Origin: Myxococcota bacterium | Lineage (GTDB): Bacteria > Myxococcota_A > UBA9160 > UBA4427 | Reading direction: 5' to 3' | DNA length: 64,000 nt | Assembly: GCA_030748735.1 (NCBI GenBank) | Contig: JASMLK010000137.1 | Span: 399 to 64,398 of the forward strand | Shown: positions 3,694 to 57,995 of the stretch, one piece after another | Layout: each line of letters begins with the position of its first letter | Numbering within the stretch: position 1 is the stretch's first letter | Made by a program: the position numbers and the translations under genes | Notes under the pieces: model-generated | Database searches by the model: none | What the model saw: the letters and a program-made list of their open reading frames with translations, nothing else | What the model was told of the DNA's origin: nothing

Positions 3694-4575
3694 ATGACCA
3701 ACTTTCTTGACGCCTATTCGATCCAGTACTGGCTCGAATCCTGCCCTCAGGGCTACCTCGAACAGACCGAATTTGGTCATGAAGCGGGCCAGAAGGAGCC
3801 CGACGCCCTGCTCTCGGATCCGTTGCTGCGCGAGCAGGCGATCCGAGTGACCTGTCAGCTCGTGTCCGGTGAGCGGGCAGCCTTGGCGGCGAGTTCGGGC
3901 CTCATCAACGCGGCGCCCGACGAAGCGAGCAAGCGCTTTCTCGCGACCCAGACCCTCGACGAAGCGCGTCACGTCGAGATCTTCACCCAGCGTCTGTACG
4001 ACCTCGGCGTAAAGAAGGACGAACTCGAAAGCGTCCTCGCCGACAAGACGAACCCGAACCTCGCGCAGTTCGCCGAGATCCTGCTCGAAAAGGTCGACAA
4101 AAAGGACTTCGTCTCGGGTGTCGTGGGGCAGAACATCGTGCTCGAAGGCATGGCGTTCACCGTCTTCGAAATGTTGGAAGCCTCCAACAAGGCACTCAAC
4201 CCGAAGTTTGCGAAGATCCTTTCGGGCACGATCGCGGACGAACGGCGACACGTCGGTTTCGGTGAAAACCGCATCGGCGCGCTGATCAGTCAGCATCCCG
4301 AGAAGAAGCCCGAAGTCGAAGCCATGCAGCGCGACATGTCGTACTTCATGCTCGCGACCTTTGCGGACCAGTTCCGGAACCCGGAGATGCGCGAAGAGAT
4401 CAAGGCCTCGCGCGAAAAGGCAGGCGAGGAACAGCAGGCCAGCTGGCAAGGTGCGAAGCTCGGTGACATGGAGCCCGAAGAACTCGAGAACCTGCTCGCC
4501 GACACCGTGCTCGGCGAATTCAAGCAGCGACTGTCGCGAGTGGGCATCGACTATCAGACGCCCGCACGGCCCTAG
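3694..4575 (+). CDS. ferritin-like di-iron carboxylate protein (R2/PaaA-like four-helix bundle), paralog A
   Basis: ATG 3694 follows GGAGAT. Ligand pattern is E ... ExxH ... E ... ExxH (GERAALAAS; LDEARHVEIF; VLEGMAFTVFE; ADERRHVGFGEN). Confidence 0.75.
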   Translation: MTNFLDAYSIQYWLESCPQGYLEQTEFGHEAGQKEPDALLSDPLLREQAIRVTCQLVSGERAALAASSGLINAAPDEASKRFLATQTLDEARHVEIFTQRLYDLGVKKDELESVLADKTNPNLAQFAEILLEKVDKKDFVSGVVGQNIVLEGMAFTVFEMLEASNKALNPKFAKILSGTIADERRHVGFGENRIGALISQHPEKKPEVEAMQRDMSYFMLATFADQFRNPEMREEIKASREKAGEEQQASWQGAKLGDMEPEELENLLADTVLGEFKQRLSRVGIDYQTPARP

Positions 4576-4588
4576 CAGGAGGTGTCGC

Positions 4589-5359
4589 GTGTCGGAGGTG
4601 GGTGAAGTTCACGACCTCGATCCGGAGGTGTTCGAACGAGAGGTTCGAACCTTCGATCATTGGTTTGGTGCGGTGCAGGACTATCTGTCCGATCTCGAGC
4701 ATGGGCACCGGGCCGACATCGCCAGTGAGGAATTGGCGGCCGACGAGGTCGATCGCCTGACCACGGCGCTTTGCAACTACGCCGTGGCGGAAACAGCTGC
4801 CCTCGAGGCGTCAAGCGGCCTGGTCCGCTTGGCGCCGAACCACGCGAGCAAGATCTTCCTGGCCACGCAGGCGGTCGACGAAGCGCGTCACGTCGAAGTC
4901 ATCCTGCAGCGCCTGGAGGACATCGGTGTCGAGGATCCCGCCGCCGAGATCGAACGGCGTGCCAACCCGGCGGTCCGCGAGTTCAAGAACCGCCTGCTGT
5001 ACCTCGTCGATTCGAATCAGTGGGATCTCGCGATCTTCGCCCAGAACGTTTCGCTCGAAGCGATGGAGTTCTCGGCGTTTCGCGCGCACGCGACGGTGGG
5101 TGATCCCGTGACCTGCGACATGCTCGAGCGAATGTTGCGCGACGAGCGGCGTCACCTCGGGTTTGGTGAGAACGAAATCGCGAGATGCCTGCGCACCGAT
5201 CCGTCGCGTGGCGCACAGATCGCATCGGTGAAGAACGAACTCGAAAGCCTCGCGATCAACACGTTCGAGTACACGGCCAAGGAACTCGAGGTGGAGTCGG
5301 ACACCATCACGAAGCTCGGGCGTGACTACCGAGACGCGGTCGAGAGGCTGGGGTTGTAA
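4589..5359 (+). CDS. ferritin-like di-iron carboxylate protein, paralog B
   Basis: GTG 4589 lies 6 nt after AGGAGG (4577-4582). Same ligand pattern as the upstream gene (AETAALEAS; VDEARHVEVIL; SLEAMEFSAF; RDERRHLGFGEN). The track ORF start at 4361 overlaps the upstream gene and is not used. Confidence 0.75.
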   Translation: MSEVGEVHDLDPEVFEREVRTFDHWFGAVQDYLSDLEHGHRADIASEELAADEVDRLTTALCNYAVAETAALEASSGLVRLAPNHASKIFLATQAVDEARHVEVILQRLEDIGVEDPAAEIERRANPAVREFKNRLLYLVDSNQWDLAIFAQNVSLEAMEFSAFRAHATVGDPVTCDMLERMLRDERRHLGFGENEIARCLRTDPSRGAQIASVKNELESLAINTFEYTAKELEVESDTITKLGRDYRDAVERLGL

Positions 5360-5717: not shown

Positions 5718-5896
5718 TCTCGCGTGTCCGTCCAACGCCCCGAACGGTGCTGCATCGGTGGGTACAGGCGAGTACAGTGGGTGGTCGTCCGTTCAACCCG
5801 AGCCGCCGTCGCTGCCTGAGTGCGCCCGCTGTGCCACCGCGGCCACGACGGGCCGCGCCCGGATCGCTGAGTTCCCGAGCCTTTGCCCTTGCCCAG

Positions 5897-6072
5897 CCCG
5901 CATGTCTCACCAGGTCTCTACTGCGACGGCACATCTCCGCACTCCGTCGGCACAAATCGACATCCACGTGCTCGACGTGGCTACGGCCACGCCTCCGCGC
6001 GTGAATGCCGATTTCCACCGACGGAGCACGAATCTGCACCGTCTCGCAACGAGACCTGGTGAGACATGCGGG
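5897..6072. repeat. 176-bp imperfect palindromic intergenic repeat, copy A
   Basis: Perfect 22-bp terminal inverted repeat: CCCGCATGTCTCACCAGGTCTC ... GAGACCTGGTGAGACATGCGGG. The interior is also self-complementary. A second copy lies at 25591-25768. Confidence 0.85.
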
Positions 6073-8927
6073 TTGGTCCCCCCGCCGCCGAGGGTTTCGC
6101 GCTGCGTCCCAGCAGCAGCGCCGAACTTGGGTTCGACCCGGCGTGGCTGCGGGCTCTCGTCGAACGCACGGGTCCCCTCGCCGTCGTAGACCTCGAAACG
6201 ACGGGTCTCCCGCGCGACCCGCGCGCCGAGGTCCTCGAACTCGGTGTTCTCACATTCGATCTCGCGCAGGACGACCCGGACACCGTGGAGGCGGCCGCGC
6301 TTTCTGGGCTCGTGAGGCCGAGTGAGCCCCTGCCGCCCGACATCCAGCGGATCACCGGGCTGCGAGACCGCGACGTCACCTCGGCCCCGCGGCTCGAAGA
6401 CGTGCGCTACCGCGTCCTCGAAGCCTTGAAGGGGCGCGTCATCATCGCCCACAACGCGGAGTTCGAGCGCACCTTCCTGTCGGGTTTCTTGTCGCCCGAT
6501 TTCAAGCGTGCGGTGTTTCTCGACACCCAGGACCTGCTGGCGCTGACCCACCCCGACGCTTCCGACCTGCGCCTCGCCACCTTCGTGAGAGAACTCCTCG
6601 GGCGTGAAGAACGACATCGCGCGCTGCAGGACGCGGTCGACACGGCGGCCGTACTTGCCGAGGTCGCTGCCGGAGCAGACCGCGGCGAGTCGCGCTACGT
6701 GAATGCCCGCCGGGCACTCGATCGCTACGAACCCGTATCGCCCTGGCTCGAGGTCCTGCGCGGCCCGCTCCTCGTCGACGAAGAACCCGCAGTCGAAGAC
6801 CCGGCCGCGCAGTTCATCGAGATCGGCAGCTGCGACGATGCTCCGGTCCCCTTCGACGAAGATGCGATCGTCGCTGCGCTGCGTGACGAAGCGCGCGGGC
6901 GTCGCCACTTTCCCGGCTACCGCGTGCGCGACGAACAGATCGAACTCGCGCGCTACTTCGTGCGACATCTGCGCGACGGCAAGACGCTGTTGCTCGAGGG
7001 TGGGACCGGTGTTGGGAAGTCACTCGCCTATCTCGCGGCGGCGATTCCGTTTGCGCGTGAGCGTCGCGAGCGCGGTGAACGCGGCCCGGTCGTGATCTCG
7101 ACGCGAACGAAACTCCTGCAGGACCAGCTGCTGCGCAAAGACATCGGCGCCGCGGCGCGCTTTCTCGGCTACCCGCAGTTGCGCGCGCTTTCGATCAAGG
7201 GTCGTGCGAATTACGCCTGTGAAAGAAGGCTCGATCAGGTGCTCGAAGAGGGACGCAACCTCGATGTCTTCCCCGACGAGCGGATGGCCTATGGCGTCCT
7301 GCTCGCGTGCGCGCGCACGCGTCCCCACGCCGAGATCGGCGACCTGCCCGCCGCCTTGATGCGCCGGTATCCGCGATTGCGCGATTTGCGAACACGTTCC
7401 GTTGCTGGGCGCGCCGAACACTGCAGCCGAGAAGCCTGTGCAAAAACACCGGGTTGCCCATTCGGTGCCAGGCGCGCGGCGCTCGCGAAGGCCGACCTCG
7501 TGGTGGCCAACCACGACCTGCTGCTGCGCTGGCCCTCCGACTATCCGCGGTTGTCCCACGTGATCTGCGACGAGGCGCACGAGCTTGCGGGCGTCGCGGA
7601 CAACGTCTACGCCCAGGTGATCCAGCCCGACGAGGTGCTCGAGCGCATCGACGAGATCTTCGGCCGCCCGGGCGATCGCGGCGAGGCGCGACTGCTTCCC
7701 GTCGAGCTGCGAAGACGCGTCGCGGTCGACGTCGTCGACTGGCGCCGCGAGATCGACCTCGCTTTCGCGGGGCTCGCCAAGAGCGTCGCGGGCTTCGCGA
7801 ACGAGTTCGGAGAGCTGCAGCTTCCGACCGAGCCCGACGTTCATCTCCCTGACGCTGCGCGATTCGCGCGCGAAGCGGCGAGTCGTCTCGACGGTGTTGC
7901 GCACGGTGCAGAAGTGCTCGCCGCCGAGCGTTCGAAGGTCGAAGACAGCGACGATCCACTGATGCGGGGGATCGGCGACTTGTACGACGCCGCCGACGGT
8001 TTGCGCATGGCGTTCAGCGACCTGCCGAGCCATGTCTCGTCGTTCGAAGGGCTCGGTCGTTCGGGGTCGCGCTTTCGTCTTTCGATACGACCGGTGAGTC
8101 CCGCGTCTTCGTATCACGCGGGTTTCATGGACGGGCTCGAAAGCTTCGCCGCGGTGTCGGCGAGTTTGTTCGTTGCCGACGATGCGTTCGCGGCGCTCGG
8201 CGAACTCGAAATCGAAGAGCGCGGCGGTGATCTCGTGGAACGCGTGCGCGTCGCAAGCCCGTTTCCCTACCGCGCCAACATGCGGGCCGTTGCGCTTTCG
8301 CGTGTTCGTGACCCGGTCGCCGACACCGCAAGCGTGCTCGAAGTCCTCGCGCGCGAACTCGGCGGACGCACGCTCGGCCTGTTCACCAGCCTGCGCCGCA
8401 TGCATGAAGTCGCGACAGTGCTTTCGAGCGCGCTCGACAACACGGGGATCGAAGTCCTCGCTCCCGTGCGAGCCCACGACGACCCGGCCGCCCTGGTCGA
8501 TCGTTTTGCGAACAGCAGGACGGGGGCCGTCCTGCTCGGCGCCAGGACCTTCTGGCAGGGGCTCGATCTCCCGGGCGATGGCCTGCAGGCGGTGGTGATC
8601 GAAAAACTGCCCTTCGAGGTGCCGACCGAGCTGCGCCGCCGCCGTGAAGAGCGGGTTCGCGAAGCCGGCGAAGACCCGTTTTCCCGCCTGGCCCTGGGCA
8701 AGATGAAGCTCCATCTGAAGCAGATGACCGGCCGCTTGATCCGCAGCGAAACCGATCGCGGAGTCGCGGTGATCGTCGACGCCCGTGCAGACCGCCCCTA
8801 CTTCAGGACGTTGGGAGATGCCTTCCCCGGAGGGACGGAGATTCGGCTGGTGGAGATCGACGGGCTTGCCGGGGTGCTCGAAGAGGTCGGCCTCGGAAGC
8901 CGATCTGCCCCTCGGGGACAGGGGTAA
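6066..8927 (+). CDS. dinG: DinG-family ATP-dependent helicase with N-terminal DnaQ-type 3'-5' exonuclease domain
   Basis: Exonuclease motifs VVDLETTGL and IIAHNAEFERTFL. Walker A GGTGVGKS. DEAH box CDEAHEL. Four-Cys insertion (YACERR, HCSREACAKTPGCPF) as in Fe-S helicases. The only in-frame ATG/GTG/TTG start (6066) lies inside the repeat terminus. Confidence 0.85.
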   Translation: MRVGPPAAEGFALRPSSSAELGFDPAWLRALVERTGPLAVVDLETTGLPRDPRAEVLELGVLTFDLAQDDPDTVEAAALSGLVRPSEPLPPDIQRITGLRDRDVTSAPRLEDVRYRVLEALKGRVIIAHNAEFERTFLSGFLSPDFKRAVFLDTQDLLALTHPDASDLRLATFVRELLGREERHRALQDAVDTAAVLAEVAAGADRGESRYVNARRALDRYEPVSPWLEVLRGPLLVDEEPAVEDPAAQFIEIGSCDDAPVPFDEDAIVAALRDEARGRRHFPGYRVRDEQIELARYFVRHLRDGKTLLLEGGTGVGKSLAYLAAAIPFARERRERGERGPVVISTRTKLLQDQLLRKDIGAAARFLGYPQLRALSIKGRANYACERRLDQVLEEGRNLDVFPDERMAYGVLLACARTRPHAEIGDLPAALMRRYPRLRDLRTRSVAGRAEHCSREACAKTPGCPFGARRAALAKADLVVANHDLLLRWPSDYPRLSHVICDEAHELAGVADNVYAQVIQPDEVLERIDEIFGRPGDRGEARLLPVELRRRVAVDVVDWRREIDLAFAGLAKSVAGFANEFGELQLPTEPDVHLPDAARFAREAASRLDGVAHGAEVLAAERSKVEDSDDPLMRGIGDLYDAADGLRMAFSDLPSHVSSFEGLGRSGSRFRLSIRPVSPASSYHAGFMDGLESFAAVSASLFVADDAFAALGELEIEERGGDLVERVRVASPFPYRANMRAVALSRVRDPVADTASVLEVLARELGGRTLGLFTSLRRMHEVATVLSSALDNTGIEVLAPVRAHDDPAALVDRFANSRTGAVLLGARTFWQGLDLPGDGLQAVVIEKLPFEVPTELRRRREERVREAGEDPFSRLALGKMKLHLKQMTGRLIRSETDRGVAVIVDARADRPYFRTLGDAFPGGTEIRLVEIDGLAGVLEEVGLGSRSAPRGQG

Positions 8928-23259: not shown

Positions 23260-23478
23260 GGACGATGGAAGGTCGGTCTTCTGGCTTCTGGATCGACCAA
23301 CATTCGACGCCTTCCCAATCCGTCTCGTGTTGCCATTCGCGTGGAACCCGCGAAACCCACGAACCGCGAACGATTCGCAGGAGCAACCCGGATCAGTGGC
23401 AATTTGTCGATGTTGTCCCCAGTTACAGCGACGGGCTCGCGCCGGACTTTCACCGGCTTCCCCAACGACCTCTCTCTC
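23260..23478 (-). promoter_or_regulatory. cobalamin (B12) riboswitch aptamer
   Basis: The minus strand reads GGUCGUUGGGGAAGCCGGUGAAAGUCCGGCGCGAGCCCGUCGCUGUAAC ... GCCACUG ... GGGAAGGCG ... AGCCAGAAGACCGACC (B12 box at 23271-23286), in canonical order. A long hairpin insertion lies between GCCACUG and GGGAAGGC. Confidence 0.85.
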
Positions 23479-23647: not shown

Positions 23648-25399
23648 CTACAAAGTCGTCTCTTCGATGTCGTCTTCGGCGACGACCACGCAGTCGCGCC
23701 CCGAAGCCTTGGCTCGATAGAGCGCGCGATCGGCATCGCCGAAGAGCCGCTTGCGGTCGCCGCGATAGAGCGCGACTCCGATCGAAACCGTGACACGCTG
23801 GTGCTCGCTCGGGGGGGCGATGAACAAACGCGTTTCGGAGATCGTCGCGCGCATCTTCTCGGCCAGTTGGGTCGCGCCTTCGAGCGCGGTACCGGGGGCC
23901 AGCAGGGCGAATTCTTCGCCGCCGTAGCGCGCCAACAAGTCGGTGCTGCGCAGGAGCGTCTGCATGACTTCCGCCACCCGACGCAGGATCTCGTCTCCCG
24001 CGGCGTGACCGAGGCGATCATTCCACGCCTTGAAGTGATCGATGTCGATGAGCACGAGCGACAGCGGTTCGCCGGTGCGGTCGACGCGCTTGGCTTCGCG
24101 AATCAGCGTGTCCTGGAAATAGCGGTGGTTGTGCAGGCCCGTGAGTCCATCCGTCACCGACAGCTGGGCGAGGACTTCGTTGGCGCGATGCAGGTCGTCG
24201 TTGCGCTTGACGAGTTCGGTGTTGGCGCGCTCGACGTCCCTATGCGCTGCTTCGATTTCGCGCGCATGGGTCTCGATGCGGTTCGTCATCTCGGAAAACG
24301 CACGGGTCAGCACGGTGATCTCGTCGCCGCTTCCGCCCTCGGGAATCGAAACGTTCTTCTCACCGGCCGTGATGCGCCGCGCAGCGTCGGAAAGGGCTTC
24401 GATGGGCTTCACCATCTTCACGGCGAAGCGATAGGCAGCGAGCGCGAACAACGCCACGATCGCGAGGTTGATCCCGAGTACACGCCGCGTGGCCGACACC
24501 ACGCGCGCATACGCGCGCGAGTACTCTTCTTCGATCACGAGCGTCCAATCGTGTTGTGGTAACGCGATCGCGCTCACGATGAGTCGTTCGCCCTCGGGCC
24601 CGGTCGTATCGACGGTTTCGAGGGTTTCACCCGTGGCGGGGAGCTCGAGCTCGAAGAGTTCGGGGAGCGGGTCGCCCTGGCTGCTTGCGAGGAAGCGACG
24701 GTCGCCGTCGATGATCGAGATGCGTCCTTCGAGCAACCGACCGTGGATGTTCAAGATGTGGGTGAGGCTTTCGAGGTCGAAGATGAGATGAAGGCTCGCC
24801 GCTCCGGTTCCTGTACTGCCGAAGCGAACGCTCGCGATCTGAATGCCGTGTCCTTCCCAACGCTCGGCATGGCTGAACGCCTGGTCGCGCAAGCCGCGCT
24901 GCATCGCGACGGACAATTGCACCTTGGCTCCGCGCCAGAGCAGGGTGTTCCCCGCGGCGTCGACGATGAACGCGGCCTTGAACTCGTCACTTCCCGCAAG
25001 TCGTCGGTCCAACTGCTCGGCGATTTCTTCGCGCGCACGCCGGGCAAGTTGGCCGCCGAGTTGGAGGTCGTTCCAGTAGCTCGCGAGCACGGGGTCGTGC
25101 CGAAAGCGCTCGGCTTCTTCGCTGCGCGCCGCGTACCAGGTGTCGAGTTCGCTCGCGGTGCGCTCGAGCACCACGGGGAAGCTTTCCTGGGTCTTCTCTC
25201 GCAGGAAGGCGTCGGTCGTGTCGAGGGAGATCGCGGAAATCACGAGCGCCGTGCACAGCGTGACGCCGAGCACGAAGAAGCCCAAACGCGTCGGGAGGCT
25301 TCCGAGCGGTCTACGCCAGACCCCGTAGTCGTCCTCGCGGGAATCGTGCGCCGCGTGCGAATCGGGGGGCGTCGCACGATTGGGCACGTGGGTCGCCAT
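23648..25399 (-). CDS. membrane sensor diguanylate cyclase (periplasmic sensor - HAMP - GGDEF)
   Basis: Two TM segments flank a roughly 270-aa periplasmic region. HAMP-like linker present. GGDEF domain with RYGGEEFALL. Confidence 0.85.
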   Translation of the reverse strand: MATHVPNRATPPDSHAAHDSREDDYGVWRRPLGSLPTRLGFFVLGVTLCTALVISAISLDTTDAFLREKTQESFPVVLERTASELDTWYAARSEEAERFRHDPVLASYWNDLQLGGQLARRAREEIAEQLDRRLAGSDEFKAAFIVDAAGNTLLWRGAKVQLSVAMQRGLRDQAFSHAERWEGHGIQIASVRFGSTGTGAASLHLIFDLESLTHILNIHGRLLEGRISIIDGDRRFLASSQGDPLPELFELELPATGETLETVDTTGPEGERLIVSAIALPQHDWTLVIEEEYSRAYARVVSATRRVLGINLAIVALFALAAYRFAVKMVKPIEALSDAARRITAGEKNVSIPEGGSGDEITVLTRAFSEMTNRIETHAREIEAAHRDVERANTELVKRNDDLHRANEVLAQLSVTDGLTGLHNHRYFQDTLIREAKRVDRTGEPLSLVLIDIDHFKAWNDRLGHAAGDEILRRVAEVMQTLLRSTDLLARYGGEEFALLAPGTALEGATQLAEKMRATISETRLFIAPPSEHQRVTVSIGVALYRGDRKRLFGDADRALYRAKASGRDCVVVAEDDIEETTL

Positions 25400-25464
25400 A
25401 CATATTGAGTTTTCGGCGCATTCTCATGCCCGCTTGATCGCCGGTCGGGCGCGGCTGCGAGTCC

Positions 25465-25532
25465 GGCGGACAAAGGCGGACAAAACGCAGGGCGCACGCA
25501 GACCGTGCGCGACAAAGCCCGACAAAACGCAC
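25465..25532. repeat. phased GACAAA direct repeats flanking a GC palindrome
   Basis: GGCGGACAAA occurs twice in tandem (25465-25484). The palindrome GCGCACG-cagac-CGTGCGC follows. Then GACAAAGCCCGACAAAACGCA. The four GACAAA copies form two pairs, each pair spaced 10 bp. Confidence 0.7.
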
Positions 25533-25590
25533 TCATGTCCCTGCCGTGGCAGCGGAACCTGCGGGCCGGCTGCGTTCGTGCTGCAGGCCA

Positions 25591-25768
25591 GCCTGCATTC
25601 CTCACCAGGCCTCTACTGCGGCGGCACATCTCCGCACTCCGGCGGCAGAAATCGACCTCCGCGTGCTCGCCGTGGCTACGGCCACGCCTCCGCGCGCGAA
25701 TCCCGATTTCTGCCGCCGGAGCACGAATCTGCACCACCTCGCTACGAGGCCTGGTGAGAAATGCAGGC
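25591..25768. repeat. imperfect palindromic intergenic repeat, copy B
   Basis: Termini are GCCTGCATTCCTCACCAGGCCTC ... GAGGCCTGGTGAGAAATGCAGGC (one mismatch). The interior is collinear with copy A. The right end touches the dnaA stop codon (25768-25770). Confidence 0.85.
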
Positions 25769-27612
25769 TAGTCGGCGGTGTGGAGCGCTCGGTGGCCAAG
25801 CTCGCCGAGCCGCGCGATCAAGGCTTCGACCGTGTATCGCAGGCGCACGTTCTCCAGCAGGTCGCGCTCGATCTTGCGGATCGCGTTGGCGACCGAGGGA
25901 TGGTCGCGATTGAGCGCGCGACCGATGTCGGCGAGCGACGCGTCAGTGAAGCGACGACACAGGTACATCGCGATCTGACGTGGAACGAGCACGTCGCGCC
26001 GTCGCGATCGCGACGCCAGTGCTTCGGGCGAGGTCTTGAAGAAACCCGCGACCGTTTCGATCACCAGCTGTGTCGTCGCGGGTGTGCGAACGACGCGGAG
26101 CGATCGCGTACGACCTTCGAGGCTTTCGCGCGCGAGATCGAGATCGATCGAGCGCTTGAATAGCGATGCCATCGTGACGAGCTGGATCAGCGCACCTTCG
26201 AGTTCGCGGACGTTCCCCTCGACGCGGTCGGTCAGCAGATCGACGCAGTCGTCGGGAAGTCGCACACCGCCGTGGGCCGCCTTGGCACGAAGGATCTCGC
26301 GTCGCAGTCCTTCGTCGGGCGGTTCGAGTTCTGCCACGATGCCGCTCGAAATGCGCGCACGCACACGAGGGTCGAGGTGTGTGAGTTCCTGGGGGAAGCG
26401 ATCGCCGGTGAGGAGAACCCGCCCGCCCGCGTTGAGCACGTGCTGCATGGTGTGGAAGAACTCGAGCTGCGTTGCGTCCTTGCCCTCGAGGAACTGCACG
26501 TCGTCCATCACCAGCAGGTCGCATTCGCCGCGGTAGCGTCGCTTGAAGCCCTGCATCTTGTTGGCTCGTATCGCGCTGGTGAATTCGCTCGTAAAGGTTT
26601 CGGCGGTCGTGTAACGCGCTCGCGCGCCGATCGACCGTGCGCCCTCGACGACGGCCGCCCGGGCGAGATGCGTCTTGCCGAGCCCGGCACCCGAAACGAC
26701 GAACACCTGGTTGAGCCCGAGTGCCGCGCCGGCGCTCGGCGGTGAAGCAAGGGCCATCGCGGCTTCGCGCGCGAGCGCGTTGCCGGGACCGACCGTGAAG
26801 GAGTCGAAGGTGAGGGGAAAGGTGGGTTGCCGCGGGGTGATCATGGCACCCGAACCACCGCCGGCTGCCGCCACGGGGTGAACCGCCGCCGCTCGCGCGG
26901 CGACCGCACGACGCGTTCGCTCGGGCATCGCCTTCTTTCGAGCCGCCGGCTCGGGGGGCGTGGGCGTGGGCGCGGGCGTGGGCACAGGCACGGGCGTCGC
27001 TTTCACCGGAACCGACTTCGCTACGGCCGGGCACCCTTCCCGCTCTTCGCCTTCGGGCAAGCTCGCTGCTGCAGCGGCGGTGCCCGGCGCAGGCCCCGCG
27101 CCGCCCAGGATGGAACCGAGAGCGTCCCCGATCGGCAGGGTTTCAGAGCTGCGCTTTGGATCGGGCCGGGGAGCGCGGCGCTTACCGGGCGTCGGCCGCG
27201 CACCTCGCGAAGGGGCTTCCTCGACCGAGTGTGCAGCGGCTTTCCGATCATCCAGCATGGGAGCCGCTGACGAACCGGTGTCGTGGTCTGCGTCAGGCTG
27301 GTCGGCTGCGGCCTCGTCGATGACACCGACTCGAAGCGCGACACGTCGACCCAACTCGGCATGCAAGCAGTCGGCGATCTGCTTCAAGAAGAAGTCGCGC
27401 ACGCGCACTGCGTGAAACGATGACGGGCACTGAAGCTCGAAAGCCTCGTCACTCGAACTGCCACCTTCCGCGGGTTCGAGGTCACCGTCGAAGCCAACTG
27501 CGCCAGTTGGTTTCGCAACGATTTTCGAGATCCACATCTCGTAGGAGACAGGGGGGAGCTCATTTCGTAGGTGGCGCAGAACGCCATCCCAGACCTTGGG
27601 GGGGAAGGTCAT
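25768..27612 (-). CDS. dnaA: chromosomal replication initiator protein DnaA (with an unusually long Pro/Ala-rich linker)
   Basis: Walker A GAGLGKTHLARA. DnaA domain IV is present (SRSRRRDVLVPRQIAMYLCRRFT...IGRALNRDHPSVANAIRKI). 614 aa. Confidence 0.95.
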   Translation of the reverse strand: MTFPPKVWDGVLRHLRNELPPVSYEMWISKIVAKPTGAVGFDGDLEPAEGGSSSDEAFELQCPSSFHAVRVRDFFLKQIADCLHAELGRRVALRVGVIDEAAADQPDADHDTGSSAAPMLDDRKAAAHSVEEAPSRGARPTPGKRRAPRPDPKRSSETLPIGDALGSILGGAGPAPGTAAAAASLPEGEEREGCPAVAKSVPVKATPVPVPTPAPTPTPPEPAARKKAMPERTRRAVAARAAAVHPVAAAGGGSGAMITPRQPTFPLTFDSFTVGPGNALAREAAMALASPPSAGAALGLNQVFVVSGAGLGKTHLARAAVVEGARSIGARARYTTAETFTSEFTSAIRANKMQGFKRRYRGECDLLVMDDVQFLEGKDATQLEFFHTMQHVLNAGGRVLLTGDRFPQELTHLDPRVRARISSGIVAELEPPDEGLRREILRAKAAHGGVRLPDDCVDLLTDRVEGNVRELEGALIQLVTMASLFKRSIDLDLARESLEGRTRSLRVVRTPATTQLVIETVAGFFKTSPEALASRSRRRDVLVPRQIAMYLCRRFTDASLADIGRALNRDHPSVANAIRKIERDLLENVRLRYTVEALIARLGELGHRALHTAD

Positions 27613-50794: not shown

Positions 50795-50824
50795 GCAGTC
50801 TTGACGTCTTCTAGCCTGGAGTTC

Positions 50825-52078
50825 TCACCAGGCCTGCCCCAGCTCCTCTTCCTCCGGAGCGAGTTCGTTTAGCTCCTTTGCAACTCGAACCAACGTACTC
50901 TTGTCCTCGTCGGCAACGAGGCGAAGGCGAACCTGGTGCCGGCCTTCGGGAAGTTCGATCTCGAACGCGTATCGCTTACCCAACGCCTGATCGGCCGCGG
51001 TCCAGGATTTCGACTTTCGAACGGGGTGATCGTGCCACTTCATTGGGATCCCATCGACCGAGGCCTCGACTGCGTAGCGTCCGGGTGTCGCCTCGGGGTC
51101 GACCATCACGCGCGAGGCCACGCGGAGTCGCACGGGACCACTCAGGTCGATTTCTGTGGAACTGCCGTCGTCGAGGCGCCACCAGCGTTGCTCTTCCTGC
51201 TCCTGTGACGTAATGCGGACGGAGTTCAGGTCGAGCAACTCGAGTGATTCCCACTCGGTTGGCCTGGGTTCTGCTTCGAGAAGATTGGCGGCGACGAGAC
51301 TCAAGGTCGCCACAGACGCAGCCATCGCCACACCTCGAGCGAATCGACGTGGCCAGGATTGACCGCGCCGGTTCGCACGGATCGCGGGCCAGACGACCTT
51401 GCGCGCGCGATCGAGGTCGAAGGGGAAGTCGATCTCACCCCATGGAATGCCGTGAATATCGACAGGCTTCAACGGGACTTCGGACGCGATTTCGGAAACC
51501 GCCGAGCTCAGCCAATCGTTTTCGCCGCCACCCTCGATCACCTTGTTCGCCAACTCGAACAATCGACGTGCGGTTCGAGCCTGGAACTTCAGGACGCCCA
51601 CGTTCTCTCCCGACACCTCACTCTCGGGGAGCGACTTGCTCATGGCCGTGAGCATGCCGTCTTCGATGTGCAGCTTCATCTGCTCAGCCGCTTCCCCCGA
51701 ACTCGAGTCATACGCGATGGCGTCGCCGTCGGTCTTGAGGAGAGATTCGATGATCTTGGGGTCGATCAGCAGGTCGCTGTTCAACACCAGCACAGGACCG
51801 TCGACCCAATCTCGAGCCGTCCAGAAGGAGTACAGGCTGTTGGTGTTTCGCCAGGCGGTGTTCTCGATGAACTCTGCGCGGAAGCCCACGACTTCGCGAA
51901 TCTCGTCGGCGCAGTACCCGACGACGATTCCGACGGGACCGACGCCGCAGTCGGCGAGGGTTTCCAGTTGGTGCTCGATCAGGGCTTTGCCTCCGACCTG
52001 CAGCAGGCACTTCGGCTGCTCTGCGGTCTTCTCGCCCATGCGACTTCCGCGGCCCGCGGCCAGGATCAATGCTTTCAT
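50825..52078 (-). CDS. nucleotidyltransferase (LicC/cytidylyltransferase-like) fused to a TM segment and a C-terminal domain of unknown function
   Basis: N-terminal ILAAGRGSRMG...PKCLL and NTNSLYS motifs. Hydrophobic segment GVAMAASVATLSLVAANLL. A further roughly 150 aa with no recognisable motif. Confidence 0.75.
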   Translation of the reverse strand: MKALILAAGRGSRMGEKTAEQPKCLLQVGGKALIEHQLETLADCGVGPVGIVVGYCADEIREVVGFRAEFIENTAWRNTNSLYSFWTARDWVDGPVLVLNSDLLIDPKIIESLLKTDGDAIAYDSSSGEAAEQMKLHIEDGMLTAMSKSLPESEVSGENVGVLKFQARTARRLFELANKVIEGGGENDWLSSAVSEIASEVPLKPVDIHGIPWGEIDFPFDLDRARKVVWPAIRANRRGQSWPRRFARGVAMAASVATLSLVAANLLEAEPRPTEWESLELLDLNSVRITSQEQEEQRWWRLDDGSSTEIDLSGPVRLRVASRVMVDPEATPGRYAVEASVDGIPMKWHDHPVRKSKSWTAADQALGKRYAFEIELPEGRHQVRLRLVADEDKSTLVRVAKELNELAPEEEELGQAW

Positions 52079-56797: not shown

Positions 56798-57982
56798 ATG
56801 TCGACCGGTGAAAACGAAGCCCCTTGTTCGAACTCAACCCGCACCAGCGACCACTCGCCCCGAGCCGCACGGACGTCGTCGGCGCTCCTGACGGCGTTCA
56901 TCGTCGCAGGGGTATCGACGATCCCCTTCGTCGCCACCACCGACGACTCGCCCGAGCCTGGCCGGGCGCTGTTCGAAGAACGCTGCGCCCTGTGCCACGG
57001 ACTCGACGGGAAGGGAGCTCCTGAGAACACGGGGATCGTGGTGCCCCGCCCCGACTTCACCGACTGCGCGTTCGCGAGCCGTGAAGCGGACGCCGACTGG
57101 GGAGCCGTGGCCACCGACGGAGGTCCCGCGCGTGGCTTCAGTCCCCTGATGCCCGCACATCGCGACCTGCTGACGCCGGAGCAGATCCAGCTCGTGCTCG
57201 ATCACGTGCGCGGCTTTTGTAGCGACGACCGTTGGCCCCGCGGTGAATTGAACCTGCCTCGACCGATGTTCACCGAGAAGGCATTCCCGGAAGACGAAGC
57301 GGTCATCACGACCGTGGGCGATGTGAACCGGACGGCCGACGAGGTTTCGACGGAGCTCCTGTTCGAAAAGCGCATCGGACCGCGTGCCATGGTGGAAATC
57401 GCGTTGCCAATCGAATCCACCGACGTCCCGACTTCCAGCGGCGGCGAGAAGAGGGAAACGGGGATCGGCGACCTCGGGCTTGGCGCGAAGTACGCTTTCT
57501 ACCATGACCTCGAAGCGGGTTTCATCTCGAGCCTCGGCAGCGAGTTCAAGTTCCCGACCGGCGACGACGCCCGGGGGCTCGGCAAGGGGAGCGTGGTCTA
57601 CGAGCCGTATCTTGCACTCGGCCAGATCGTTGCCAGCGATGGCTTCGCGCAAGTCCAACTACTCGGCGAGATCCCGACGGATCGCGACCTCTCTGACGAA
57701 GTGCAGCTACGTACCGCACTCGGCTGGACCTTCACCCCGACCCCGCATGGCCGCGTCTTCGCACCCATGGTCGAGATCATCGGCGCATGGGAGCTGCAGG
57801 GTAAAGACGAAGCGAGCTGGGACATCGCACCGCAGATCCAGATTCCCTTGAACCGCCGCCAACATGTGCGGTTGAACGTCGGTGCACGCATCCCCCTGAC
57901 CGACTCCGACACCCGCCCGACGCGTGTCGGCGGCTACCTCCTGTGGGACTGGTACGACGGCGGGCTGTTCGACGGTTGGTGA
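56798..57982 (+). CDS. c-type cytochrome domain fused to an outer-membrane transporter-like beta-barrel domain
   Basis: Haem motif CALCH in FEERCALCHGLDGKG. The C-terminal 250 aa has a beta-barrel-like alternating pattern (GIGDLGLGAKYAFY, GSEFKFPTGD) resembling MetA-pathway OMPs; that resemblance is from memory. Start uncertain. Confidence 0.65.
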   Translation: MSTGENEAPCSNSTRTSDHSPRAARTSSALLTAFIVAGVSTIPFVATTDDSPEPGRALFEERCALCHGLDGKGAPENTGIVVPRPDFTDCAFASREADADWGAVATDGGPARGFSPLMPAHRDLLTPEQIQLVLDHVRGFCSDDRWPRGELNLPRPMFTEKAFPEDEAVITTVGDVNRTADEVSTELLFEKRIGPRAMVEIALPIESTDVPTSSGGEKRETGIGDLGLGAKYAFYHDLEAGFISSLGSEFKFPTGDDARGLGKGSVVYEPYLALGQIVASDGFAQVQLLGEIPTDRDLSDEVQLRTALGWTFTPTPHGRVFAPMVEIIGAWELQGKDEASWDIAPQIQIPLNRRQHVRLNVGARIPLTDSDTRPTRVGGYLLWDWYDGGLFDGW

Positions 57983-57995
57983 GAAGCGCGGGCCT

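Follow-up and report, generated by a model that had tools for sequence, protein, structure and literature searches.

In the 64-kb window analysed here (the whole stretch of 64,000 nucleotides, from contig JASMLK010000137.1 of a Myxococcota bacterium), two copies of a long hairpin element adjoin two housekeeping genes: copy A lies at the start of dinG, which encodes a DinG-like exonuclease-helicase, and copy B at the end of dnaA, which encodes the replication initiator. Di-iron oxygenase-like and thiamine pyrophosphate (TPP)-enzyme genes are found upstream of dinG, and the closest named homologues come from metagenome-assembled genomes (MAGs) of Myxococcota. A repeat search of the window recovered A and B as one two-copy direct repeat family (5893-6078 and 25588-25773; 186 nt, 88% identity, gap-free) and no third copy of the hairpin element. 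Both copies were inserted after this lineage had split from its closest sequenced relatives, and each of them now supplies a start or a stop codon to the gene that it adjoins.

Two inserted hairpins at dinG and dnaA

The 176-nt palindromic core of copy A corresponds to the interval (5897-6072) singled out in a preliminary description of this DNA, which had been made from the letters alone and had claimed that A and B are collinear and nearly identical, that they carry terminal inverted repeats of 22-23 bp, and that they encode no transposase; all of these claims are borne out. The inverted repeats are perfect over 22 nt in A (5897-5918 / 6051-6072) and match at 21/22 positions in B, and the complementarity of each copy extends beyond these termini to approximately 80 base pairs in all, making the element a near-complete palindrome. 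Folding of both strands, proposed as a check in the same description, gives strong single-strand hairpins for both copies (-117 to -149 kcal/mol; z = -12.8 to -16.9 versus dinucleotide shuffles). The strand that folds better, referred to as S, reads 5'-...CTCACCAGGTCTCGTTGCGAG... in copy A. The element (184-186 nt) has no coding capacity for a transposase, its sole long frame being a 57-codon read-through from the old TTG start of dinG, and translations of A and B in all six frames, compared with 5.8 billion proteins also with a view to mis-called open reading frames (ORFs) in other copies, retrieved 0 relatives. Rfam, searched with both copies at gathering and permissive thresholds, returned no family (only generic miRNA-hairpin models far below threshold), and no promoter- or terminator-like site was found inside the element.

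The insertions are quite clear when the two loci are compared with those of relatives. The dinG site is empty in a syntenic relative (L119, DinG 91% identical), which reads gcccTTGcctgattcccccgccgccgag / ...gcccTTGcctgattcccccgccgccgagggtttc with no element; in the window, the ancestral TTG (5889-5891) is followed two codons on by the element, after which the homologous sequence ...ccccgccgccgagggtttc resumes. The dnaA site is likewise empty in three relatives (L124, 90% identical; L125, 85%; L126, 65%), all of which read gccgacTGAgctgcagca, i.e. ...gccgac TGA gctgcagca, whereas the window junction reads ...gccgac TAG CCTGCAT...[element]...ATGCAGG CTGG cctgcagca. Relative to the empty sites, the net gain is exactly 180 nt at both loci. 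The flanks of A and B are unrelated, and the two copies are therefore independent insertions; an origin by segmental duplication was rejected on this ground. A composite transposon bounded by A and B was also rejected, since the dinG-to-dnaA interval is syntenic and similarly spaced in a relative lacking both copies. In another assembly of the same organism (which is present in SRR25584963), the Logan contig stops inside copy B after 48 nt, the behaviour to be expected of a multi-copy repeat.

At dinG, the ancestral start (TTG CCY GA.) is conserved in the relatives L119, L120 and L121, and copy A lies after codon 2, cutting the gene off from this TTG. The ATG at 6066, inside the right terminus of the element, had been pointed out as the only canonical in-frame start of dinG; this is correct, and it replaces the conserved TTG. 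The next canonical in-frame start is a GTG at codon 74, past the exonuclease motif. The protein accordingly begins with MRVGPPAAEGF, versus MPDSPAAEGF or MPETPAAEAF in the homologues. The new ATG is preceded by a Shine-Dalgarno (SD)-like GGTGA, which is complementary to UCACC near the 3' end of 16S rRNA, and, 180 being divisible by three, the new ATG is still in frame with the old TTG. In the predicted fold of the dinG mRNA, GGTGA and the AUG are both paired in the basal stem of a hairpin of -118 kcal/mol. With these signals buried, translation of dinG probably requires termination-reinitiation: ribosomes would initiate at the old TTG, traverse the element and begin anew at the AUG, 3 nt after the TGA that closes this upstream frame.

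At dnaA, the gene ends with GAC TGA in the relatives without the element, and here the terminus of copy B supplies the stop codon TAG, a point that had escaped the preliminary description. A terminator-like stem lies beyond copy B, which places this copy inside the 3' untranslated region of dnaA, in the S orientation. The positions of these features are compiled in the table below.

Coordinates of copies A and B and of adjoining features in the window
Feature	Position	Strand	Remarks
Copy A, hairpin element	5893..6076	(-), S strand	core 5897-6072; flanking 4-mers CCAG (5893-5896) and TTGG (6073-6076)
Copy A, arm5 (nhmmer)	6075-6034	(-)	
Copy A, arm3 (nhmmer)	5934-5894	(-)	
Old-TTG frame, 57 codons	5889..6062	(+)	TTG 5889-5891; crosses the whole element; TGA 6060-6062, 3 nt before the new ATG, same frame
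Terminal cassette GGTGAGACATG	6058..6068	(+), outward	SD-like GGTGA 6058-6062; in-frame TGA 6060-6062; one codon; ATG 6066-6068
DinG-like exonuclease-helicase gene, 953 aa	6066..8927	(+)	Pfam RNase_T, DEAD, Helicase_C_2; element/junction sequence provides the ATG and the first four codons (M R V G)
GGDEF protein gene	23648-25399	(-)	
Terminator-like stem and T-run	25492..25510	(-)	downstream of dnaA, beyond copy B; surroundings conserved in relatives
Copy B, hairpin element	25588..25771	(-), S strand	also the strand of dnaA; core 25592-25767; flanks CCAG (25588-25591) and CTAG (25768-25771)
Copy B, arm5 (nhmmer)	25771-25729	(-)	
Copy B, arm3 (nhmmer)	25629-25589	(-)	
dnaA	25768..27612	(-)	Pfam Bac_DnaA, Bac_DnaA_C; stop TAG (25768-25770, CTA on the + strand) is the CTAG at the element end

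Several other features of the window were observed. CTAG is strongly depleted (12 occurrences versus 209 expected from base composition or 50 from a Markov model), and one of these 12 is the element/dnaA junction (25768). Two stretches resembling solo termini (50811-50836, CTAGCCTGGAGTTCTCACCAGGCCTG; 57971-57993, GGTGAGAAGCGCGGGC) are located at gene ends; they were dropped as third and fourth termini, being not significant in the arm search with nhmmer, and may be chance matches or old remnants. The stretch separating dnaA with copy B from the GGDEF gene contains GCGTTTTGTCGGGCTTTGTCGCG and GCGTTTTGTCCGCCTTTGTCCGCC, two paired motifs (25440-25535, read on the minus strand) that are conserved in L124-L126 and could be a regulator-binding or replication-related site. 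GC skew gave no placement of a replication origin relative to A and B. A cobalamin riboswitch aptamer (23275-23462, minus strand; RF00174, 73 bits, E=3.8e-16) is the sole Rfam match of the window at gathering score. Lastly, a 134-nt direct repeat (3877-4010 / 4796-4929, 70% identity) is unrelated to the hairpin element and reflects two paralogous di-iron oxygenase-like genes (PaaA_PaaC / Phenol_Hydrox matches).

Covariation, strand polarity and relatives in other phyla

Copies A and B differ at 23 positions, 12 of which form six pairs that are changed on both sides with pairing kept; five further differences keep the pairing via G.U, and only four pairs are broken. The compensatory examples given in the preliminary description, namely CAGGTCTC/GAGACCTG in A versus CAGGCCTC/GAGGCCTG in B at the termini, CCGTCGG/CCGACGG versus CCGGCGG/CCGCCGG, and CATG/CATG versus CATT/AATG, are real, and three more exist. 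Half of the compensated pairs (3/6) are situated more than 30 nt from the element ends. When 23 independent substitutions were simulated, six or more compensated pairs arose in 0 of 200,000 runs (P<5e-6), and the broken pairs numbered 12 on average versus the 4 observed (P=7.5e-5). Sliding the 3' partners by 1-3 columns as a control left 0 compensated pairs. Gamma-type copies add two more compensated pairs, one at the same C-G/T-A position and one elsewhere. The covariation between A and B is far beyond chance and stronger than had been stated. The earlier argument that the structure is maintained stands for the arm-correlated changes themselves; the covariation by itself is not proof of host-level selection on an RNA or a cruciform, for selection during propagation of the element, or templated correction of one arm by the other, would yield the same pattern.

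The hairpin is also polar, a property that the preliminary description had not recorded. The S strand, 5'-...CTCACCAGGCCTC-GTAGCGAG...CCGCAGTAG-AGGGCTGGTGAG...-3', folds better than its complement in 18/18 elements with RNA parameters and again in 18/18 with DNA parameters, the margin being negligible in the latter case for L066 (-91.6 vs -91.3 kcal/mol). In the window copies, S (the minus strand) forms 10-11 G.U pairs and the plus strand 2; eight of those on S do not vary from A to B, two tandem 5'-UG/GU-3' motifs among them. When five subfamilies are taken together, the wobble bias is approximately 32:15 towards S. An asymmetric internal loop near the hairpin base, GU(A/C/U)GCGA x GCAG(U/C)A, is conserved in all subfamilies, whereas the stems differ. 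On the S' strand, loops of the type C(UNCG)G, namely C(UUCG)G or C(UACG)G, terminate the hairpin tips and the inserted modules; S has C-GNA-G in their place, namely C-GAA-G or C-GTA-G (L065 6223-6430, L056 3793-4000, L031 3480-3687, L007 4843-5145 and window 5975-5990); such loops are stable in RNA (S') and in DNA (S), respectively, and so do not decide which nucleic acid is the functional one.

Relatives with the same termini occur in many other genomes, as revealed by the search for further copies that the preliminary description had suggested. Species-representative genomes were scanned with a terminus pattern of 16 specified bases; most of the 117 loci retrieved are chance matches, and the real members were sorted out by blastn, regular expressions and nhmmer. 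The element consists of two conserved but non-identical arms of about 44 nt (arm5, CTAGCCCGCATTTCTCACCAGGCCTCGTAGCGAGGGCGACGAGG; arm3, ...CGTCGTCCGCAGTAGAGGGCTGGTGAGAAATGCGGGCTAG), which pair as the base of the hairpin, and of a variable, self-complementary interior; versions of the element of 78, 101, 185, 208 and 303 nt were seen. The shared 44-nt arm sequence begins CTAGCCCGCATTTCTCACCAGG..., and arm profile searches place a single arm5 and a single arm3 on one and the same strand of every complete element. The same arms bound hairpins of ~80-340 nt in at least 14 genomes of at least four phyla: a Pseudomonadales MAG chromosome (OZ220737.1) with at least eight loci (the window of the source organism has two in 64 kb), two sponge-associated gammaproteobacterial MAGs, other Gammaproteobacteria, an Alphaproteobacteria MAG, Acidobacteriota of three classes (Terriglobia, Thermoanaerobaculia, Acanthopleuribacter), Eisenbacteria and a deltaproteobacterial MAG. 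For instance, one terminus in a sponge gammaproteobacterium is identical at 35/35 positions to the right terminus of copy B. Young gamma-type copies nearly always have CTAG on both flanks. Viral contigs gave 0 matches, blastn against plasmids and phages gave no meaningful ones, a search of the literature by terminal sequence found unrelated primers only, and a metagenome scan with the conserved centre recovered one locus, of the sister type described below (L120), and no further copy of the window subfamily. The absence of any counterpart in Rfam, in the plasmid, phage and viral collections, in the protein database and in this literature search suggests that the family is undescribed.

A sister palindromic family (L120 9819-9988 and L123 1472-1633) has other termini, (C)TAG-AGCAGTGCATTGAAGA... 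/ CAGCCCGTTGAAGAACCC..., together with CTAG-like 4-mer flanks and a 23-nt centre (TGGCTACGSCCACGCYTCCGCGC) in common with the window copies. In L120, from an 83%-identical relative, the sister element is found immediately upstream of the TTG with which dinG begins. Clusters of three elements sharing the outer 15-17 nt GCCCGCATTTCTCAC were seen within 0.4-1.6 kb (L033 166-570, L044 5988-7602, L023 6172-6955), as would result from newer copies entering the CTAG that older ones have at their ends.

At both ends, read outward, the family consensus is TGG TGA GAA ATG CGG GCT AG, that is a stop codon, an overlapping SD-like GGTGA and an ATG in the same frame. Among ~13 independent loci where a co-directional gene adjoins a terminus, the element ATG is the first available start of several genes: of dinG, with the empty site in relatives; of ligD in three related gammaproteobacterial genomes, where residue 6 aligns to residue 7 of the phosphoesterase domain of Pseudomonas aeruginosa LigD; of an SDR (short-chain dehydrogenase/reductase) gene, with position 1 of the Pfam profile on residue 4; and of the gene for a TPR lipoprotein, whose signal peptide begins there. 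It is possibly also the start of a thymidylate kinase gene, for which a GTG at codon 5 is the alternative. This recurrent use may be either an adaptation of the element or a mere filter on the insertions that survive. One and the same insertion is seen between divergent ku and ligD genes in three loci (L072 4052-4236, L069 4503-4687, L007 4843-5145); the L007 version measures 303 nt instead of 185 nt because extra mini-hairpins have been added at its tip. Several insertions adjoin replication or repair genes (dinG, dnaA, ligD-ku, tmk); the loci are few and this may be a coincidence.

Mobility, host function or arm correction

We consider it likely that A and B represent an undescribed family of non-autonomous mobile hairpin elements, of the kind of MITEs (miniature transposable elements with inverted repeats) or REPINs, kept by their own propagation and dependent on a trans-acting transposase. 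Selection would then act on this propagation: lineages whose arms are complementary on S would be copied, so that the compensated differences would mostly predate both insertions and would represent divergence between active lineages, not decay in place. As to the enzyme supplied in trans, the CTAG flanks of most members would point to an IS630/Tc1-like transposase targeting TA within CTAG, a target that titles in the reference list of PMC2170065 assign to IS630, and the strand asymmetry would point instead to a single-stranded intermediate.

That the hairpin is a structured RNA working for the host (an mRNA-stabilising or RNase III-processed hairpin, an attenuator or a small RNA precursor, under host-level selection at each locus) seems improbable to us. 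A wobble asymmetry of this sort is what classically marks an RNA strand, copy B occupies the 3' untranslated region of dnaA in its well-folding orientation upstream of the native terminator-like site, and regulatory MITE transcripts are documented, in the case of Correia elements with RNase III and in that of ERIC with RNase E (PMC10969869). Copy A, however, is opposite to both flanking genes, which leaves the poorer strand in its mRNA; within the family, elements lie in either orientation to the genes next to them; no Rfam family, promoter or terminator was found for the element; and DNA parameters favour the same strand as RNA parameters do. Moreover, the relatives without the element keep the genes at both loci, and no locus-specific function is thus required. 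A host RNA role is disfavoured overall, copy B being the place where it could still apply. Quasipalindrome correction is an established mutational mechanism. Quasipalindrome template switching or arm-to-arm gene conversion would copy mutations across arms without any structural selection; changes on both arms with pairing kept are the product expected of it, and the symmetry-keeping interior deletions and additions (the 78- to 303-nt versions) fit slippage across hairpins. Such a process should nevertheless erase mismatches, yet the asymmetric internal loop persists across phyla and the eight G.U positions are unchanged between A and B, although these have diverged by 12%; nor would a strand-blind process leave surviving mismatches biased to wobble on one strand in five subfamilies. 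We therefore regard neutral arm correction as an unlikely explanation.

A doubtful but conceivable variant is that of a REPIN-like element moved as single-stranded DNA by an HUH/Y1 enzyme, either a REP-associated tyrosine transposase (RAYT) or one of the IS200/IS605 type, with the S hairpin as substrate and no true target duplication. The architecture matches that of REPINs (PMC3116915) in its ends, which are inverted and conserved, its variable spacer forming a hairpin and its frequent compensatory changes, the consistent strand polarity and the G.T-tolerant pairing under DNA parameters are in keeping with such a substrate, and on the S strand both arms have GTAG within the conserved internal loop. 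The window junctions are also slightly better explained by insertion after CT without duplication, the model which requires the fewest extra substitutions; at dnaA, gaCT|AGCC needs no extra mutation and directly makes the TAG. On the other side, no Y1 or RAYT gene was seen with our weak probes in the window or in any locus collected, REP/RAYT systems stay within lineages by vertical inheritance, unlike these arms, which are near-identical in different phyla, the arms are not clear REP palindromes (only arm5 has a 5-bp local stem), and orientation is mixed along the one complete chromosome, read without an assigned origin. There is little probability, in our opinion, that the family is a cross-phylum element of a mechanistically new type, with a strand-specific hairpin intermediate recognised at the asymmetric internal loop and a portable stop-SD-ATG cassette at both termini. 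If true, such a cassette would allow insertion into first codons or between operon genes without killing them, and would explain why the element ATG serves as the start of dinG, ligD, the SDR gene and the lipoprotein gene in unrelated bacteria.

Several observations weigh against mobilisation in trans as we propose it. No autonomous element was found: no pair of termini is more than ~600 nt apart in any locus collected, no transposase-like ORF adjoins solo termini, and, in a limited search space, no cognate autonomous insertion sequence (IS) with the same termini was found among 126 loci, plasmids, phages and viral contigs. The six-frame translations of the loci collected contain no IS630-type transposase motif (SPxLNPIE type), nor a Y1/RAYT-like ORF in a phmmer search with IS200 TnpA and YafM probes (best E=0.69), whose sensitivity is low and which was made on an incomplete genome. 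Nor do A and B show clean target duplications at their junctions. The CTAG...CTAG ends of the family are compatible with a duplication of 2 to 4 nt, as regards the target-site duplications that the preliminary description had proposed to look for, but both empty sites of the window read C|TGA (CTGA) and the filled ones CCAG...TTGG (A) and CCAG...CTAG (B); none of the models compared (2-, 3- or 4-nt duplication, or no duplication) fits both junctions without extra substitutions. In the window subfamily, the flanking 4-mers behave as an inverted repeat and would thus be part of the element, not a direct duplication. The orientation of S relative to neighbouring genes (antisense to dinG, sense to dnaA, both elsewhere, and mixed again on the Pseudomonadales chromosome) is not the pattern of a host RNA role, nor that of a single-strand mechanism strictly coupled to replication. 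Only two copies of the window subfamily were retrieved, so that the covariation relies on one pairwise comparison and on analogy across subfamilies, and the re-initiation at dinG is something that we infer.

Place among known hairpin repeats

The two loci provide a clean, datable case of a mobile repeat rewriting gene ends, here the start of a helicase gene and the stop of a replication-initiator gene, with both genes left intact. Such loci will be mishandled by gene callers and assemblers: contigs break in the repeat and starts are mis-assigned. A strand-polar hairpin with compensating changes is also a test case for whether hairpin repeats are kept for their own transposition or for an RNA function in the host. 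Were the outward cassette adaptive, it would represent a novel means by which a transposon makes itself less costly to its host. The known picture of bacterial hairpin repeats is not overturned. Two other kinds of structured DNA were considered and rejected: integron attC sites, since the termini read CTAGCCCGCAT... and are not R''/R' core sites (GTTRRRY), and the copies lie among housekeeping genes whose synteny is conserved; and retron msr/msd regions, since no reverse transcriptase is found among the neighbours (dinG, dnaA, GGDEF, di-iron oxygenase-like) and copies occur at several unrelated loci.

The assignment to MITE-, REP- or ERIC-type elements made in the preliminary description is right as to kind, a palindromic repeat without transposase, and wrong if taken as membership, for the element is neither ERIC nor REP by sequence. 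MITEs of the IS630/Tc1-mariner group (e.g. the pneumococcal RUP) are likewise small, non-coding and dispersed, with terminal inverted repeats; the CTAG...CTAG of the family is the IS630 target, and a 178-nt element with a 2-nt duplication would account for the 180 nt gained. Here, however, no IS630-family transposase or matching full-length IS was found in the loci collected, the C|TGA sites of the window show no clean TA duplication, and the full-length hairpin, interior compensation and strand polarity are not required by a double-strand cut-and-paste enzyme. REPINs, with their conserved inverted ends, hairpin-forming variable spacer, common compensatory changes and proposed single-stranded intermediate (PMC3116915), resemble the window family in having two inverted conserved units around a hairpin spacer with compensatory changes. 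The window family differs in that no RAYT was found, in its greater length (~80-340 nt), its CTAG flanks and its outward ATG cassette, and in arms of 35-44 nt that are near-identical in Gammaproteobacteria, Alphaproteobacteria, Myxococcota, Acidobacteriota and Eisenbacteria, and hence not lineage-specific, unlike REP-RAYT systems.

Correia elements show TA duplication and, like the window element, are hairpin-forming, TA-associated and without a known transposase. These elements (NEMIS) of Neisseria are hairpin MITEs of ~100-160 bp that are co-transcribed with their neighbours and alter their expression (PMC10969869). The two share no sequence similarity, and whereas Correia elements donate promoters and RNase III sites, the window element donates start and stop codons and has no promoter-like site. 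ERIC is an imperfect palindrome over its whole length in transcribed intergenic regions, and Rickettsia palindromic elements (RPEs) insert in frame without destroying genes (PMC10969869). The window element has no sequence or Rfam match to ERIC, and in contrast to RPEs it does not become a translated segment of the protein; the old N-terminus is cut short, and the gene starts anew at the ATG of the element. The element behaves like bacterial MITEs (Correia, RUP, ERIC, RPE) and REPINs and, judged by its sequence, belongs to none of them, its less usual traits being the cross-phylum distribution, the polar arms and the outward stop-SD-ATG terminus.

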